Virus record (IMG/VR): IMGVR_UViG_3300005805_009577
Location: 32,001-96,000 of that record
Reading direction: 5' to 3' (one strand)
DNA from: a virus
Length of the DNA: 64,000 nt
The notes below the pieces were generated by a model. That model worked only from the letters and a program-made list of their open reading frames with translations, was not told the DNA's origin and searched no databases. The position numbers and the translations under genes are program-made. Positions 1,331-61,318 of the stretch are shown in pieces (the stretch's first letter is position 1; each line of letters begins with the position of its first letter).

Positions 1331-1350
1331 AGTACGCTATCCCTGTGTCG
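1331..1350 (+). promoter_or_regulatory. Putative phage promoter AGTACG-N8-GTGTCG
   Basis: Same bipartite spacing at 14784, 49593 and 60930; intergenic, upstream of AAA gene. Confidence 0.6.
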
Positions 1351-1391
1351 TCGGGCTACATTATAAACCAAACTATAAAGGATTGAAAAAA

Positions 1392-2453
1392 ATGTCAACT
1401 GATCTTATTAATCGCAACATTATTTCCGAAAATCTTTCAGACGTTATTAAACGCAACCGAAAGCGTGATCGTCCTATTATGATTTTCGGAGCCCCTGGAG
1501 TTGGTAAGTCTGAACAAGTTCAGGCTTCTATTGAACAGGGCGAATACTGTATTGATCTTCGTCTTAATAATCTTGAGAGCATTGACCTTCGTGGTTTACC
1601 TATCATTAGTAATGATGAAAAAGGTAATCCTAAAAAGGTTACTTGGGTACGTCCAGAATTTCTTCCAGAGTTGGGCGGCGGCATTTTGTTTCTGGATGAA
1701 ATTAATACTGCCCCTCCGAGTGTGCAAAATCCTGCCTTGCAGCTTGTTTTAGATAGAAAGATTGGCAATCATCATCTTGGTGATGGCTGGTATATTGTTG
1801 CTGCTGGCAATCGAAGCGAAGATAAGGCACATGTTAATCCGCTTAGTTCTGCACTTATAGCAAGATTTGCGGTTTATGATTATGTTCCTAGTGTTGAAGG
1901 ATGGCTTGATTGGGCTATTAAGCATAATATTCATTCTGATGTTGTGGGCTTCATTAGCTTTAGGAAAGAGCTTTTGCTGCAACCTATTGTTGATGAATAT
2001 ACTCCTTCTGCAAATCCTAGAGCCTGGAGTTATGTTTCTGATGCTCTTAAACTTGATCATAGGATGCTTTGCGATGTTAGGGCTTGCGTTGGCGGTGCTG
2101 CCGGTGAGTTTATGGCATACCTTGACGTTTGCAAAAGCTTGCCTGATATGGATAAGTTAATTTCCGGAAAGAGCAAGTGGAAGGAAGATAAGAAAAAGAT
2201 TAGTGTGAGCTATGCTGTGGCAAGTGCTTTGGCTTCTCACTTAATTGAAAGTAAGGCACCTGAAAAGATTTTTGAGAATTGTGCAAACGTTCTGATTGAT
2301 ATTAGTCCTGAGCCTGCCGCTTTGTTTATCAAGCGGATTATGAATGATCCAAGGGCTAGTAAGATCAGAGAAATTGCTTATGAAAGCGAGAATATCTCTA
2401 AGTGGCTTGATAAAAACAATGAGCTGATTAAGACCAGCGTTGCACTTAGCTGA
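1392..2453 (+). CDS. MoxR-like AAA+ ATPase
   Basis: Walker A GAPGVGKS, DLRL, Walker B FLDE, AGNRSED, ARF; start taken at ATG 1392. Confidence 0.9.
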   Translation: MSTDLINRNIISENLSDVIKRNRKRDRPIMIFGAPGVGKSEQVQASIEQGEYCIDLRLNNLESIDLRGLPIISNDEKGNPKKVTWVRPEFLPELGGGILFLDEINTAPPSVQNPALQLVLDRKIGNHHLGDGWYIVAAGNRSEDKAHVNPLSSALIARFAVYDYVPSVEGWLDWAIKHNIHSDVVGFISFRKELLLQPIVDEYTPSANPRAWSYVSDALKLDHRMLCDVRACVGGAAGEFMAYLDVCKSLPDMDKLISGKSKWKEDKKKISVSYAVASALASHLIESKAPEKIFENCANVLIDISPEPAALFIKRIMNDPRASKIREIAYESENISKWLDKNNELIKTSVALS

Positions 2454-2469: not shown

Positions 2470-3801
2470 ATGCCTGCAACAAAAAAGCCAAAAAAGACTG
2501 ATAGTTCTGTGGTTACACAAGAAGAAGAAGAGCTTTTTAGAAAACGCATAGACGCTATTCTTTTCGCTTTTGCACATCATTATCCTTTTTGGGGTGTGCT
2601 AAGCGAAAGGTGCAAGTATAGCGTAACTAAGACTGCTATTCCTACCGCTTGTGTGGACAAAGAAGGTCACATTTTATTTAACTACGACTTTTGCAAAGAG
2701 TTAACGGACCATCAGTTTCTTTTCTTGACTGCTCACGAAATTAGCCACTTTGTTTTTGAGCATAACCCAAGAAGAAGTAATAGAGATCCTCAAATTTGGA
2801 ATATTGCTGTAGATTACGCAGTTAATTTGATGCTCTGGTTTCAGTTCAGCCAGGACCGCTACTTTATTAAGGGTGGCGTTTTTGATGAAAGCTGGAGAAC
2901 AGATAAGCCTAAGTGGGAGGATATTAACGCAGAGCAGATTTATGCCGAGCTTATGAAAACTGCCACCAAGATTAAAATAAATATCATGGATATTATGGGT
3001 GACGAGCAAAATAGCAATGGTGAAGGTCAAGATGGAGAAGGCGGAGGAAAGGGCGAAGAAGAAGGCGAAGGAAATGGAAATGGAAATGGAAATGGAATAA
3101 CTGTTGTTCGCGATCGAAGAGTTCCTTTGCCTGATAAAAAGGGAAAATCTAAAGAGCAAGCTTCACAAGAACTTAAAGACTTTGTTGGCAAGGCTATTTG
3201 TGATGCTTATACTGTTGCTAAGTCTCAAGGCGATATGCCTGCTGGACTTGAGCGAGCAATTAATCGTCACTTAAAAGCAAAGGTTGACTGGATTACTGCA
3301 CTTCGCCAGAAGATGCGGTTTGGAACAAGCAGGCTTGAAAAGCGTGATACAACTTGGAATTATCCTAATAAAAGGTTTTTAGGAAGAAATTACGTTATTC
3401 CTAGTAGCACTGGTCCTACTTCTCCTAAGATTGCTTATGCAATTGATACTAGTGGAAGTATGAGCGAAGAGGACTTAGCTAATGCTATGGCTGAACTAGA
3501 AGACCTTAGAAAAAAGCTGAATGCTAAAGTTTACTTTTTAGATTGCGATGCTGGCGTATATGAAAGTCGTTGGATAAATCCCCAAGAACCTCTTCCGAAA
3601 CTTTCGGGTGGCGGCGGCACTGACTTTAGACCTGTATTTGAGCATCTTAAAAATAACGGCATCAAACCAGATTATTGTGTATTCTTTACAGATGGTTACG
3701 GTGAATTTGGAGACAAGCCTGCATTAGATGTTCTTTGGGTGCTTACTAGCGATGTTAAGCCTCCATTTGGCGAAGTTATTCGCTATAATGATTTAAATTA
3801 G
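2470..3801 (+). CDS. DUF2201-like metallopeptidase plus vWA domain protein
   Basis: HEISH (HEXXH), MIDAS DTSGS, GGGGTDF; AAGGAG RBS before ATG 2470; partner of upstream AAA. Confidence 0.85.
   Translation: MPATKKPKKTDSSVVTQEEEELFRKRIDAILFAFAHHYPFWGVLSERCKYSVTKTAIPTACVDKEGHILFNYDFCKELTDHQFLFLTAHEISHFVFEHNPRRSNRDPQIWNIAVDYAVNLMLWFQFSQDRYFIKGGVFDESWRTDKPKWEDINAEQIYAELMKTATKIKINIMDIMGDEQNSNGEGQDGEGGGKGEEEGEGNGNGNGNGITVVRDRRVPLPDKKGKSKEQASQELKDFVGKAICDAYTVAKSQGDMPAGLERAINRHLKAKVDWITALRQKMRFGTSRLEKRDTTWNYPNKRFLGRNYVIPSSTGPTSPKIAYAIDTSGSMSEEDLANAMAELEDLRKKLNAKVYFLDCDAGVYESRWINPQEPLPKLSGGGGTDFRPVFEHLKNNGIKPDYCVFFTDGYGEFGDKPALDVLWVLTSDVKPPFGEVIRYNDLN
3070..3099 (+). repeat. GGAAAT hexamer tandem repeat (GN linker)
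   Basis: (GGAAAT)x4 plus GGAATA inside the vWA gene. Confidence 0.8.
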
Positions 3802-5480: not shown

Positions 5481-5565
5481 GCCGAGGTGGCGAAATTGGC
5501 GAAACGCAAGGGACTTAAAATCCCTCACATTAGAAACGCTGTGGGTTCGAATCCCACCCTCGGCA
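5481..5565 (+). tRNA. tRNA-Leu (anticodon TAA)
   Basis: Acceptor GCCGAGG/CCTCGGC, anticodon arm AGGGA-CTTAAAA-TCCCT, long variable arm, GGTTCGAATCC; no encoded CCA. Confidence 0.95.
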
Positions 5566-5927: not shown

Positions 5928-6684
5928 AATAATTAAACAGATTGTAAACAAGGATGACTTATACTTATTCAGTTTAAGTATGGGTGTAGATAGTGTAGCT
6001 GCCTTTATTTGGATGATAAACAAGGGCTACAATGTAATTCCCATTCATTTTAATCATAAATTAAGACCTCAAAATGATTTGATGGAAAAGAAATACAGAG
6101 AACTTTGTTCTGCTCTTGGTTGTGGCTGGCGATTCGCTAGTACGAGAAAAAATAAAGATCTCTTTGATCAAATTCAAGCTTATTTGCTGACACAACTAAG
6201 CGAAAATTTTAAAGCAAAAACAGAATCAGAATGCCGAGAAGAAAGACTAAACTTTTATCAAGAAGTTTGTAATAGAGCAAGAAGAATTTTTTACGGCAAT
6301 AAAACTCCAAAAATTATCACCGCACACCATTTGAATGATTATGTTGAAAGTTATTTGTTAAATTGTTTTAGAGGGCATCCAACTCACACGCCCATAGAAT
6401 TAGAAAGCACTTTCACACCAAGAGATTCAGAGAATACAGAGTTTAAGATTATTCATCCTTTTTTGTTAACTAAAAAATTTGATTTCAGGCAGTTTTTAGA
6501 AAGAAACAACTACATGAAGTATGTTGTTGAAGATGAAACAAATAAAACTATCAAAGGAAGTAGAAGAAATTGGATCAGAAATACTATACTTCCTGAAATG
6601 AAAAAAAACAAGCTATCTTTAGAGAAATTTGCAAAAAGAAAGATTGAGGACAACTTGAAATTGAATAGTTTTGTGTTAAACTAG
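5920..6684 (+). CDS. tilS: tRNA(Ile)-lysidine synthetase
   Basis: PP-loop SMGVDS, HFNHKLR, TAHHLNDYVES, DETN...RRNWIRNTILP; short form without C-terminal domains. Confidence 0.9.
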   Translation: MIKIIKQIVNKDDLYLFSLSMGVDSVAAFIWMINKGYNVIPIHFNHKLRPQNDLMEKKYRELCSALGCGWRFASTRKNKDLFDQIQAYLLTQLSENFKAKTESECREERLNFYQEVCNRARRIFYGNKTPKIITAHHLNDYVESYLLNCFRGHPTHTPIELESTFTPRDSENTEFKIIHPFLLTKKFDFRQFLERNNYMKYVVEDETNKTIKGSRRNWIRNTILPEMKKNKLSLEKFAKRKIEDNLKLNSFVLN

Positions 6685-6698
6685 ACCACAACAAAATT

Positions 6699-6771
6699 GG
6701 GACGTTAGCTCAGGGGTTAGAGCGGAAGACTCATAATCTTTTGGTCGGGGGTTCGATTCCCTCACGTCCCA
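6699..6771 (+). tRNA. tRNA-Ile2 (anticodon CAT, lysidine-modified, reads AUA)
   Basis: GGGACGT/ACGTCCC-A, loop CTCATAA; AGCTCAG..GGTTAGAGC and CTCATAATC..TTGGTCG resemble bacterial ileX; adjacent to tilS. Confidence 0.85.
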
Positions 6772-6810
6772 TTTAAAGGCTTAGTTGTCGAGATTTTGCT
6801 TTGCAAAGCC

Positions 6811-14594: not shown

Positions 14595-14783
14595 GGCATA
14601 ACAAGATGGATATCACATTTTTTCAATATTCTTGTGCTATTTTGAGTTGCACCTTGATGGGTTTTGTGGTTGGGCTATCTTTTGCGGCTTTATTATTTAA
14701 TAAATAATTTAACACAATTTTTTTTAAATATTCTTAAAATCTATTTTAAATGTATTTGAACAAACAAATCAAATGATTCTTCT

Positions 14784-14803
14784 GGTACGTATAAAGGGTG
14801 TTG
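14784..14803 (+). promoter_or_regulatory. Putative phage promoter GGTACG-N8-GTGTTG
   Basis: Bipartite motif shared with 1331, 49593 and 60930. Confidence 0.6.
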
Positions 14804-14857
14804 CGACGATGGCACGTTGCTGTCGGTAACATGGTTGATGAAAAAAGGAGAATGATT

Positions 14858-15136
14858 ATGCCGCGTGTTAAGAATCAGGAGGCTGTTGCTCTTGATAAGT
14901 TTCTTGAGGCCGTTCACCGTCACGTTGCTGCCGGTCATACGGTTGAAGAGTGTGCTAAGGATCTTAATCTTAAGCCCGCTTCGGTTTCGGTTCGTCTTTC
15001 GCAGCTTCGCAAGAAGTTTAAGGACGCTGGGATTGAAATGGACATTCCTCGCTTCAAGGGTGGCGTTCGTAAGTCCACGCTTATCGACGAGGCCAAGGTT
15101 ATCCTTGAGCGGCTTCAGTCGAAGAAGAGCCGCTGA
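14858..15136 (+). CDS. Small basic HTH DNA-binding protein (paralog of 60992..61318)
   Basis: HTVEECAKDLNLKPASVSVRLSQLRKK; AAGGAG RBS 7 nt before ATG 14858; extreme codon bias. Confidence 0.8.
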   Translation: MPRVKNQEAVALDKFLEAVHRHVAAGHTVEECAKDLNLKPASVSVRLSQLRKKFKDAGIEMDIPRFKGGVRKSTLIDEAKVILERLQSKKSR

Positions 15137-15167
15137 TATTGTTCTGAACAAAAATAAAATTTTTTGT

Positions 15168-15202
15168 ATAACCGGCGTATTGACACGCCGGTTATTTTTT
15201 TT
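15168..15202 (+). terminator. Intrinsic terminator
   Basis: ATAACCGGCGT-ATTGAC-ACGCCGGTTAT followed by T-tract. Confidence 0.85.
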
Positions 15203-15208
15203 TATAAT
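15180..15208 (+). promoter_or_regulatory. Perfect sigma70 promoter TTGACA-N17-TATAAT
   Basis: -35 at 15180-15185 (in terminator loop), -10 at 15203-15208. Confidence 0.75.
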
Positions 15209-15234
15209 GGTAAAAATTAACAAGGAGTTTAAAT

Positions 15235-15450
15235 ATGAAACTAGAGCAATCTAAAATAGTTGAGTGGAAAAGCGAAGATGGAAAGAAGATACTGTGGATA
15301 ATCACCGACCAAGAAAACATGGGTGTTGTGATACACTCTGATGACTTGTTAAAGCTTGGCACAACAACTAATTTAAAAGATTATAATGTTGCACCTTTTA
15401 TCGGTTCGGTAAAAATTAATTCTGATGTGAGTAATGAACAAAGATCTTAG
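15235..15450 (+). CDS. Hypothetical protein
   Basis: AAGGAG RBS; ORF track. Confidence 0.75.
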   Translation: MKLEQSKIVEWKSEDGKKILWIITDQENMGVVIHSDDLLKLGTTTNLKDYNVAPFIGSVKINSDVSNEQRS

Positions 15451-20718: not shown

Positions 20719-20724
20719 GGTACG
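20719..20724 (+). promoter_or_regulatory. GGTACG motif
   Basis: Intergenic, 11 nt before ATG 20735. Confidence 0.45.
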
Positions 20725-20734
20725 TTATCTTTTT

Positions 20735-20920
20735 ATGGGAAAAGAAAAATCTGATAAGATTCGCAAAGAAATGTTAGTGGTTGATGGAAATGAAATCAAG
20801 AGAATCTGTAGAGATGAATTGGGCGGCATAACTTTTATTGCCGAAGTTCTTCATTCAAGAATTGTATTGACTGCTTGGACTGGCGAAAACGAAAAAGTTT
20901 TAGCAACACAAGTAAAGTAA
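20735..20920 (+). CDS. Hypothetical protein
   Basis: ORF track. Confidence 0.65.
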   Translation: MGKEKSDKIRKEMLVVDGNEIKRICRDELGGITFIAEVLHSRIVLTAWTGENEKVLATQVK

Positions 20921-28601: not shown

Positions 28602-28621
28602 GGTACGTCGTAGTGTTGTCC
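28602..28621 (+). promoter_or_regulatory. GGTACG motif (N8-TTGTCC variant)
   Basis: Intergenic, before ATG 28623. Confidence 0.5.
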
Positions 28622-28622
28622 T

Positions 28623-29132
28623 ATGAAAGAAAAAGTTTTTATAAACAATGTTGAACATGAAATAGAAGTTCAGCCTGTTACTTTGGTTTATAATTCGACT
28701 CATTATGATACCGCTTATCAGAGAATAATGATCACACCTGAAATGACACTGAATCATTTCAAGGAAGCAAAAGATGTAAATGTTTATGAAGAGTGCTTTT
28801 TTAGACTAGTGATCACAGATTATAAAGAAAAATTTAATAAAGAAAATTTAAATAATTGCAATGTAGGAATTAAGCATATTTTTGGTTTAGTTTCTTTAAC
28901 ATTAAAATTATTTATTGAGAAAAAAAAATTTGGCTGGAGACACCCAGAAAGCTTTGTTCATCCTAAATACCAAGGAAACATAGCAGATCTTTTAATTTTA
29001 ATGAATACTCCGGATATGTTTATAAAATTTATAAATAACATTAAAAATGGAAGATTGTTAAATTGTGAAGATGTTCATGATAAATTTTTCAATGTAATTT
29101 GTTGCGAAAAATTGGAAAGTTTTGTAAAATAA
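28623..29132 (+). CDS. Hypothetical protein
   Basis: ORF track. Confidence 0.7.
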   Translation: MKEKVFINNVEHEIEVQPVTLVYNSTHYDTAYQRIMITPEMTLNHFKEAKDVNVYEECFFRLVITDYKEKFNKENLNNCNVGIKHIFGLVSLTLKLFIEKKKFGWRHPESFVHPKYQGNIADLLILMNTPDMFIKFINNIKNGRLLNCEDVHDKFFNVICCEKLESFVK

Positions 29133-29139
29133 TTCGGAC

Positions 29140-29211
29140 GGCCCCATAGTTAAATGGATATAACAACTGCCTTCTAAGCAGTTATTAGAGGTTCGATTCC
29201 TCTTGGGGCTA
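29140..29211 (+). tRNA. tRNA-Arg (anticodon TCT)
   Basis: GGCCCCA/TGGGGCT-A, ACTGC-CTTCTAA-GCAGT, GGTTCGATTCC; no CCA. Confidence 0.93.
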
Positions 29212-47293: not shown

Positions 47294-47299
47294 AGTACG
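47294..47299 (+). promoter_or_regulatory. AGTACG motif
   Basis: Intergenic, 11 nt before ATG 47310. Confidence 0.45.
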
Positions 47300-47309
47300 T
47301 TTTTAGTTT

Positions 47310-47546
47310 ATGAAAATCGAAGAAGCATCCAAATATAGCATAAGAAACAAAGACTTCATCGAGAAGTCAGACCTTTGCAGTTGCTATTATTGTTTTTCGA
47401 CTTTTAAAAAAGAAGAAATAGACAACTGGGCTGATTCTGGTCAGACAGCCATTTGTCCAAAATGTAGTGTTGATTCTGTTCTAGGGGACTATACAATAAA
47501 GTTTGACAAAGAATTTTTTGAAAAACTTCACGAATATTGGTTCTAA
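47310..47546 (+). CDS. Small Zn-binding conserved protein
   Basis: CSCYYC, EI..W.D, TA.CP.CS.DSVLG. Confidence 0.75.
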   Translation: MKIEEASKYSIRNKDFIEKSDLCSCYYCFSTFKKEEIDNWADSGQTAICPKCSVDSVLGDYTIKFDKEFFEKLHEYWF

Positions 47547-49592: not shown

Positions 49593-49612
49593 GGTACGGT
49601 TTTTTTATGTCG
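49593..49612 (+). promoter_or_regulatory. Putative phage promoter GGTACG-N8-ATGTCG
   Basis: Same spacing as 1331, 14784, 60930; overlaps ACCGTA/TACGGT hairpin. Confidence 0.55.
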
Positions 49613-49646
49613 AGTTTAATTACTTAAAAAGGAGTGCTATTTTTTT

Positions 49647-49928
49647 ATGACGACCGTTAGGCAACTTCGTCAAAATGGATATAAAGTCAGGGTTTTGCAT
49701 CATCGAATCAAGCGAATTGTAGCCATTGAAAATAATCCAAACGGCCATAAAAAAGAAATTATACACAATTTAGGTGGTAGCACCCAAATTATTATTGACG
49801 GCCCGGATGGCGAGCATTTTGAGGGCAAGGCTATTTGTTCTATGGTCGATAACTACAACAAAAAGCTTGGAGTTCAAATTGCTCTAGGTCGAGCAATGCT
49901 TAATCCTTTAAATTCGGTGAACTCATGA
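49647..49928 (+). CDS. Conserved phage protein
   Basis: LR..GYKVRV.H, GG.T, A.CS..DN..KK.G..IALGRA; AAGGAG RBS. Confidence 0.75.
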   Translation: MTTVRQLRQNGYKVRVLHHRIKRIVAIENNPNGHKKEIIHNLGGSTQIIIDGPDGEHFEGKAICSMVDNYNKKLGVQIALGRAMLNPLNSVNS

Positions 49929-60929: not shown

Positions 60930-60949
60930 GGTACGTCTCTCCGGTGTCG
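60930..60949 (+). promoter_or_regulatory. Putative phage promoter GGTACG-N8-GTGTCG
   Basis: Bipartite motif shared with 1331, 14784, 49593. Confidence 0.6.
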
Positions 60950-60991
60950 TTCGTCTGCAAACATAATCTAAAATAATTGGAGAAAAATTTT

Positions 60992-61318
60992 ATGGGTCGC
61001 CCTCCTGCTGGCACTGGTATTGACATGGATCACTTCATTACTGTATGGATTGAGGCTTACAAGTCCGGAAAGAATCAAAGTGATGTTAGCCGAATCCTTG
61101 GAGTGACTCCTGCTGCTGTTTCAACCAAGGCTAAGAAGTTTCGTGAAATGGGCATTGAACTTCCCGAACTTCAGCGGTCTAGTGGCGTTAACACTGTGAA
61201 TGTGAGTGCGGCAAAGCAGTTAATGAGCCGTCTTATGAATGAAGTCAATCAGGAGACTGACCGACAGATCAAGGAAGTTGAAAAGAATGAGTTTGATGAT
61301 GGCGGAGATTTTCTGTGA
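60992..61318 (+). CDS. Small HTH DNA-binding protein (paralog of 14858..15136)
   Basis: NQSDVSRILGVTPAAVSTKAKKFREMGIELP; GGAG RBS; strong codon bias. Confidence 0.8.
   Translation: MGRPPAGTGIDMDHFITVWIEAYKSGKNQSDVSRILGVTPAAVSTKAKKFREMGIELPELQRSSGVNTVNVSAAKQLMSRLMNEVNQETDRQIKEVEKNEFDDGGDFL

Follow-up and report, generated by a model that had tools for sequence, protein, structure and literature searches.

Codon-usage classes in phage T4 were reportedly linked to time of expression by Cowe and Sharp in 1991, and low-GC, tRNA-rich cyanomyoviruses that infect higher-GC hosts are said to have been the subject of work by Limor-Waisberg in 2011 and Enav in 2012. Phage genomes also contain morons, which are promoter-gene-terminator units of deviant composition. 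Phage codon-usage classes tied to expression time, with phage tRNAs serving one class, have been described (Mioduser et al. 2017, PMC5683454), and the same theme appears in a study of Shigella phage Sf14 (Ross & Doore 2025, PMC12482277) and in an opinion piece (PMC11025619). It is already established that early and late phage genes differ in codon usage and that phage tRNAs serve late or phage-typical codons. In T4-like phages, the promoter-early stem-loop (PeSL) cassettes provide composite terminator/promoter elements that bound small variable genes (PMC2839356, PMC4122927).

The gene described here lies on one 181,145-bp viral contig with a GC content of 30.5% and a completeness estimate of 78% (CheckV). 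The window, meaning the whole 64,000-nucleotide stretch that was analyzed, corresponds to bases 32001-96000 of this contig, and coordinates below refer to the window unless they are marked as genome positions. The contig encodes rIIA, an ATP-dependent DNA ligase, a MoxR-like AAA ATPase with a DUF2201 vWA partner, a sigma70-family factor, a PP-loop TilS-like protein, and 14 tRNAs. The target gene (14858..15136, + strand) encodes a 92-aa helix-turn-helix (HTH) protein.

As in the two-class phages of the T4 type, the genes of this phage fall into discrete synonymous classes, and the phage tRNAs are cognate to the codons of one class. The split is far more extreme here, however (AAA 11% vs 80% and ATA 0% vs 49% in the two classes), class membership is tied to a sequence motif whereas theirs is tied to measured timing, and the biased set is dominated by a multicopy HTH family. 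The likeness to PeSL cassettes lies in the stem-loop terminator of the target, which is fused to a sigma70-type promoter, and in a dense array at genome 131-143 kb. In contrast to PeSL cassettes, the recurring upstream element here (TTTTnGGGTACG) is not a sigma70 promoter, and no T4 core genes were recognized on the source contig. Like a moron, the target is an autonomous one-gene unit with a base composition sharply unlike that of its surroundings, but the position of the unit is kept in a diverged relative, the unit is part of a regulon of ~50 sites, and its composition is apparently held by selection rather than reflecting recent import. The comparison with cyanomyoviruses rests on an AT-rich phage that carries tRNAs for the A/T-ending codons favored by its genes; there, however, the tRNAs are discussed genome-wide or for host range, with no promoter-marked subset of codon-avoiding genes. 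What is unusual in this phage is the near-complete separation of two codon dialects, their link to a motif, the dominance of a 12-copy HTH family, and the fact that tRNA genes also fall in this motif class.

The target is a one-gene unit made up of a GGTACG motif, a GC-rich leader, a strong Shine-Dalgarno (SD) sequence, the HTH regulator gene, and a composite of terminator and sigma70-type promoter. Its promoter-like motif, GGTACG-N8-GTGTTG (14784..14803, +), is a weaker member of the TTTTnGGGTACG class, with a position weight matrix (PWM) score of 15.4. The 68-nt GC-rich 5′ leader (14790..14857, +) has a predicted hairpin at ~14798-14832 and the SD sequence AAGGAG at 14845-14850; the z-score for the fold of this leader is only -1.3, and the structure is not significant. 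The unit is closed by an intrinsic terminator with an 11-bp stem followed by a T-run (15168..15203, +). The terminator hairpin, at 15168-15195, carries in its loop the TTGACA (-35) of a perfect sigma70-type promoter, TTGACA-N17-TATAAT (15180..15208, +, with TATAAT at 15203-15208), which serves the next gene, an ordinary-codon gene at 15235.

The original prediction was built on a hand count of codons in the target, and that count proved exact. All 9 Leu codons are CTT, all 12 Lys codons are AAG, all 8 Arg codons are CGN (CGT 4, CGC 3, CGG 1), and all 4 Ile codons are ATT or ATC (2 each), leaving zero TTA, AGA, ATA, or AAA. Under the ordinary usage of this genome, the probability that none of TTA/AAA/AGA/ATA would occur in these 33 Leu/Lys/Arg/Ile codons is ~1e-16. 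The GC content of the gene is 0.513 vs 0.305 for the genome. Its A3, the share of A-ending codons, is 0.02, the lowest of 317 genes, and steps to 0.34 in the next gene; T3 in the target is 0.45. A 160-aa ORF on the opposite strand (14741..15223, -) was rejected as a gene: it is in register with the target codons and is a by-product, open because the sense strand is without TTA, CTA, and TCA.

Genes were called across the contig with a two-model codon scorer, giving 20 atypical and 297 ordinary genes among the 317. The atypical genes are all on the + strand and have an A3 of ~0.02-0.2 compared with a median of 0.38, and a distinct low tail is visible in the A3 histogram. Besides the AAA and ATA shares given above, TTA falls from 46% in ordinary genes to 2% in atypical genes, AGA from 68% to 1%, CCA from 41% to 4%, and GCA from 40% to 9%, and there is no correlation between the two classes in relative synonymous codon usage (RSCU; r = 0.02). 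The depletion of A is confined to the third position, where the composition is A 0.12, T 0.44, G 0.25, C 0.20 in atypical genes and A 0.38, T 0.40, G 0.11, C 0.12 in ordinary genes. At codon positions 1 and 2 of atypical genes A is not depleted relative to T, and the untranslated leader contains A at 0.26 and T at 0.29. GAA is the preferred Glu codon in the atypical class (72%), and GGA is partly used there despite a phage tRNA. One HTH family accounts for 12 of the 20 atypical genes, and common descent inflates this count. In the HTH genes, codon positions 1 and 2 have a GC of 0.5-0.59, compared with 0.33 in ordinary genes; the amino-acid composition of the HTH genes is also GC-shifted, and the GC excess is therefore not wholly synonymous. 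Cassette leaders and hairpins are GC-rich as well. Among long genes the strongest bias is found in a gene for a 227-aa protein with no assigned function. The possibility that the bias changes with distance from the promoter was considered and rejected, as the long biased genes are without an internal gradient.

Three further genes had been grouped with the target for their codon content. The first is an HTH paralogue gene (60992..61318) that together with a motif of score 30.8 spans 60930..61318 on the + strand; it has one TTA and is free of AGA, ATA, and AAA, in agreement with the earlier count, and its A3 is 0.15 and its GC 0.46. In the gene for the MoxR-like AAA ATPase (1392..2453, or 1331..2453 with its motif, +), the first 100 codons do contain one TTA, no AGA, and no ATA. 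Over its entire length this gene has 4 TTA, 4 AGA, 1 ATA, and 8 AAA, and its A3 of 0.16 represents a moderate bias; the DUF2201 gene that follows (2470..3801, +) is intermediate, with an A3 of 0.25. The third is a 93-aa gene without assigned function (49647..49928, or 49593..49928 with its motif, +), for which the reported 0 AGA, 1 ATA, and 2 TTA are correct but the bias is only mild (AAA 4 vs AAG 3, 2 AGG, A3 0.25). The neighboring gene at 15434, which had been put forward as rich in ATA and AAA, contains 7 ATA and 14 AAA.

The motif named in the original prediction, RGTACG-N8-RTGTYG, occurs as 4 exact copies in the window and 7 in the genome, all on the + strand, where 0 are expected. It is real, but it represents only a subset of a wider class with ~50 copies of TTTTnGGGTACG, ~7x the number first recognized. 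A PWM scan returned 51 sites on the + strand vs 2 on the - strand. The motif can be outlined as TTAAAA..CCTTTTnGGGTACG..N8..TTG, and its sites are mostly found between genes, with a start codon 15-70 nt downstream. We infer that the TTTTnGGGTACG element is a promoter of an unassigned type. The motif PWM is without TTGACA or TATAAT at the proper spacing, and the element is not a sigma70 promoter. A sigma54 promoter (GG-N10-GC) was also rejected, since GGTACG resembles GGCACG but the downstream TTG is 4 nt too far. GGGTAC presumably resembles the -10 box of sigB/sigF-type promoters, and no properly spaced -35 box for that reading was found. When a 14-base version of the motif was scanned across viral contigs, only single chance matches were returned. 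The sigma70-family factor of the phage (genome 23328-24230) is a 300-aa protein that consists of regions 2 and 4 only, is written in ordinary codons, and fits no sigma70 subgroup; the GGGTACG motif may be recognized by this factor.

Two wide-class sites have an unusual layout. At 20720..20737 (+) there is no SD sequence and an ATG lies exactly 10 nt after GTACG, and the site at 47295-47312 has the same arrangement. The sequence suggests that transcription would start ~12 nt after the G of GTACG, and the mRNAs produced from the 20720 and 47295 sites may be leaderless.

A genome-wide association between motif and codon avoidance had been anticipated and was found: of the 20 atypical genes, 18 directly follow a site at a distance of no more than 150 nt (Fisher p = 2e-18), and with the HTH family collapsed to one the association holds at p = 1e-7. 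The link runs one way. Ordinary codons are used by 15 of the 33 motif-first genes, including rIIA and DNA ligase, and with about half of the motif-first genes in the ordinary group the promoter class does not define the codon class. In these ordinary motif-first genes the four codons are slightly less frequent than in the rest of the ordinary class. The full motif alone, on which the original prediction relied, does not predict the bias either, as its 7 genes comprise 4 with strong bias, 2 intermediate cases, and 1 ordinary gene (genome 115747).

Among the 14 phage tRNAs, nine have U34 (Leu-UAA x2, Arg-UCU, Lys-UUU, Glu-UUC, Ile-UAU, Ala-UGC, Gly-UCC, and Pro-UGG), and together with the CAU tRNA they bring to 10 the number that read A-ending codons. 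The Leu-UAA, CAU, and Arg-UCU tRNAs are present in the window as described earlier, and the tRNA-Lys(UUU) that had been predicted to lie elsewhere in the genome was found at genome 119523. Several of these genes are located behind motif sites. Downstream of the AAA operon are tRNA-Leu(UAA) (5481..5565, +), the TilS-like gene, and tRNA(CAU) (6698..6772), with no convincing terminator in between, nor one between tRNA-Leu(UAA) and the motif at 1331; the TilS-like gene and tRNA(CAU) are 14 nt apart and together span 5980..6772 (+). A wide-class motif (score 24.2) is followed by a 169-aa ordinary-codon gene and tRNA-Arg(UCU) (29140..29211) in a unit at 28603..29211 (+). The gene for tRNA-Lys(UUU) lies 80 nt past the best-scoring motif site, Glu-UUC comes after a two-gene atypical unit behind a motif, and Ile-UAU and Leu-UAA come after the site at genome 132113. 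The TilS-like gene encodes an N-terminal domain only: in structural comparisons it matches cellular TilS over the N-terminal domain and no further, and its closest clusters consist of viral PP-loop proteins 200-250 aa long. A TilS role for this PP-loop gene is supported because it adjoins tRNA(CAU).

The proposal that the biased genes avoid the codons supplied by the phage's own tRNAs fits TTA, AGA, ATA, AAA, GCA, CCA, and GGA, but it fails for GAA, which is kept at 72% despite tRNA-Glu(UUC). GTA, ACA, TCA, CAA, and CTA are avoided even though this incomplete contig has no phage tRNA for them, and A-ending codons without a phage tRNA on the contig have a share of 0.07 in atypical genes vs 0.25. 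The rule followed by these genes is to avoid NNA, not to avoid codons with a phage tRNA.

The bias is also found in relatives. One of these, IMGVR_UViG_3300036770_008686 (designated G001), aligns with the source phage only in patches, with ~65-75% nucleotide identity over the aligned stretches. The target's unit holds the same genomic position in G001, and the orthologues of the HTH gene, the gene for the 227-aa protein, and the AAA ATPase gene are all atypical, with the bias kept though 32-43% of conserved residues switch to a different synonymous codon. For the HTH gene the figure is 32%, and 4 of its 23 changes involve A3, compared with 131 of 237 synonymous changes in rIIA. The association with the motif is present as well, with 6 of 8 atypical genes in G001 following RGTACG (p = 1.5e-5). 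Upstream of the target orthologue the GGTACG core is kept and the flanks have diverged, and the same core precedes homologues on small metagenome contigs. G001 also carries tRNA-Lys(UUU). One orthologue on a metagenome contig retains the GC excess with a much weaker bias (A3 0.28). A more distant relative, a 385.6-kb jumbo-phage contig, has the same AAA-DUF2201-HTH synteny and ~50% GC in the 12-kb stretch examined, and its RSCU agrees with that of the atypical class of the source phage (r = 0.66), with no such agreement for the ordinary class (r = -0.28).

What was observed directly is that a second dialect exists, that it goes with the motif, that it affects third positions only, that relatives have retained it, and that the phage carries the tRNAs listed above. 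On these grounds we lean towards the view that the bias is the product of selection for translation that needs no U34 (phage-type) tRNAs. AT pressure is fully expressed at T3 and is blocked only at A3, which argues for selection on decoding rather than for drift to the genome composition. The retention of GAA at 72% argues against a general avoidance of A or a simple effect of GC, and it fits the logic of decoding. The bias is delimited by genes, survives synonymous turnover, and recurs as the same dialect in a distant relative, which again points to selection on decoding. A transcription-linked mutational skew was considered and rejected, as it does not fit a bias that is specific to the third position and to A, delimited by genes, and able to survive turnover. 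The mechanism that we envisage is as follows. NNA codons would need U34 tRNAs, and the phage would supply these itself (nine U34 tRNAs, plus the CAU tRNA beside the TilS-like enzyme). Judging from this tRNA set, the host tRNA pool probably reads NNA poorly, and the codons preferred in the atypical genes would be those of the host. Genes free of NNA could then be translated at full rate on host tRNAs alone, and the NNA-rich bulk of the genome would depend on phage tRNAs. We speculate that phage tRNAs are not yet available, or are not needed, when the NNA-free genes act. If either timing or independence from tRNA supply is true, this phage would represent an unusually clean natural case of codon choice and viral tRNAs scheduling expression, and it would also show how a virus splits its genes between the decoding capacity of the host and its own. 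Since the two dialects hardly overlap and a simple motif marks them, the hypothesis is directly testable. Even without timing, the pattern of avoided A and tolerated T at the third position separates selection on decoding from base composition, which is useful where phage islands of deviant GC get read as horizontal transfer.

The original prediction went further than selection on decoding and placed the NNA-free genes in an immediate-early class, with later genes gated by the supply of phage tRNAs and TilS, so that a translational timer is tied to a promoter class. All of the support for selection on decoding applies to this model. The motif precedes rIIA, DNA ligase, small HTH regulators, and small-ORF arrays, and tRNA genes are found behind the same motif. 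In T4, rIIA and DNA ligase are pre-replicative. We nevertheless regard the full model as possible rather than probable, since the motif is not sigma70-like and consensus sigma70 promoters front ordinary-codon genes, which by analogy with T4 would form the true early class. Perfect copies of TTGACA-N17-TATAAT number 4 on the + strand vs ~0.3 expected by our own estimate from base composition. The phage's own sigma factor is written in ordinary codons, as is about half of the motif class, and both facts argue against the model. Given that sigma70 promoters front ordinary genes and that the phage encodes a sigma factor, the motif class could be middle rather than immediate-early. A further reading is that one promoter class wires a feed-forward translational timer, with NNA-free regulators, U34 tRNA/TilS genes, and NNA-rich enzymes all behind the same GGTACG promoters. 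Under such a scheme the regulators (12 HTH paralogues, the AAA ATPase, and others) would be made at once on host tRNAs, and co-transcribed NNA-rich neighbors, for example rIIA and ligase, would be made efficiently only once phage tRNAs mature. We consider this arrangement unlikely.

The level of expression could instead account for the bias by itself, with the biased genes being those most heavily translated, at any timing, through classical translational selection. An SD match of at least 5 nt is present in 75% of atypical vs 28% of ordinary genes, the biased genes are promoter-proximal and stand in one-gene units with their own terminators, and the strongest bias among long genes belongs to the 227-aa protein, all in favor of heavy translation. 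We doubt this explanation, however, as the genes concerned are mostly small regulators in 12 copies, unlike the proteins that are usually very abundant, and classical tuning to the pool of the infected cell, in which phage tRNAs are included, should not exclude the codons that those tRNAs read.

A foreign origin, with cassettes brought in by PeSL-like shuffling from the host or from related phages of higher GC and not yet adjusted to the composition of this genome, would agree with the shared dialect of the 385-kb related contig at ~50% GC in its 12-kb stretch, with units bounded by repeated promoter and terminator elements, and with the raised GC at codon positions 1 and 2 and in hairpins. 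It is quite improbable even so, because the bias is unchanged in orthologues at ~70-74% nucleotide identity that have undergone many synonymous changes, because a T3 of 0.44 follows AT pressure with only A3 blocked, as simple drift would not do, and because searches of viral and bacterial collections turned up no close donor. Selection at the RNA or DNA level, whereby A-poor, GC-rich transcripts would resist an AU-specific ribonuclease, fold stably, or escape silencing of AT-rich DNA, is very improbable, for although leaders, terminators, and the ORF-less units of the cassette array are also GC-rich, A is strongly depleted only at third positions and is about as frequent as T in the leader, GAA is preferred over GAG, and the leader fold is not significant.

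The target belongs to a 12-copy paralogous winged-HTH family, of which it is the most diverged member at 23-29% identity. Its Pfam scores are below the cut-offs (Sigma70_r4_2, 19.4 bits against 25.7; GerE, 19.3 bits against 23.5), its paralogues score 21.5-21.8 bits with HTH_24, just under the cut-off of 21.9, and multi-repeat relatives match HTH_24 at 1.9e-74. The predicted model of the target has three helices and a C-terminal helix (pLDDT 64), and a Foldseek comparison of this model with the PDB gave only generic, non-significant HTH matches. The target product is likely to have a DNA-binding regulatory role, and one possibility is a putative binding of the HTH protein to the GGGTACG element. 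A profile search with the family returned 1427 proteins, some of which, among them proteins encoded by related phage contigs, have a single domain and a length of ~80-110 aa. Many of the rest (P0002, P0005, and ~100 more) are metagenome proteins of 300-900 aa that contain 5-12 tandem HTH copies and have a common C-terminal tail, an architecture described by no specific Pfam family. A pattern search with the alignment of the core HTH subfamily found no relatives in viral or bacterial genome collections.

Nine of the 12 HTH paralogues are located outside the window in the array at genome 131-143 kb, where ~25 motif-headed mini-units are densely packed and local GC reaches 0.55. Each unit has a motif, a leader, a small gene or no ORF, and a hairpin containing CCTAGG.

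Searches for near-identical phage records were negative, and deposited phages include no close relative. Neither the source contig, at 78% completeness, nor G001 yielded members of the capsid, terminase, or sheath families, and no tmRNA was detected anywhere in the window (ARAGORN; Rfam at the gathering threshold). For rIIA and a 648-aa protein only distant matches were obtained, which were uninformative on the host. TAnnTTTG promoters of the Bacteroidota type are not enriched, and the strong use of SD sequences argues against a host of that kind. A gene presumed to be GmhA-like appears by eye to be a HAD-type phosphatase fusion and was of no help for host assignment. Some of the relatives come from metagenome records labelled KRAE22-1, which we take to be perhaps lake samples.

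Several smaller observations concern the tRNA genes and the distant relative. The best-scoring motif is separated from tRNA-Lys(UUU) by a near-consensus promoter, TTGACG-N17-TATAAT (genome 119456-119484), whose -35 box begins at the downstream TTG of the motif. A tRNA-Ile with anticodon UAU is uncommon in bacteria; the phage encodes one at genome 132449-132520 in addition to the TilS-like/CAU pair, and it may have two routes to read ATA. In the 385.6-kb relative, an ORF-less stretch of ~600 bp (L142:1200-2000) contains four copies of GGTACGGC, and based on these copies the motif core may be older than the AT-rich lineage. The same contig also contains the reverse of the situation described for the target: at L142:7790-8239 an AT-rich gene (GC 0.32, A3 0.38, 20 AAA) is found amid sequence of ~50% GC.
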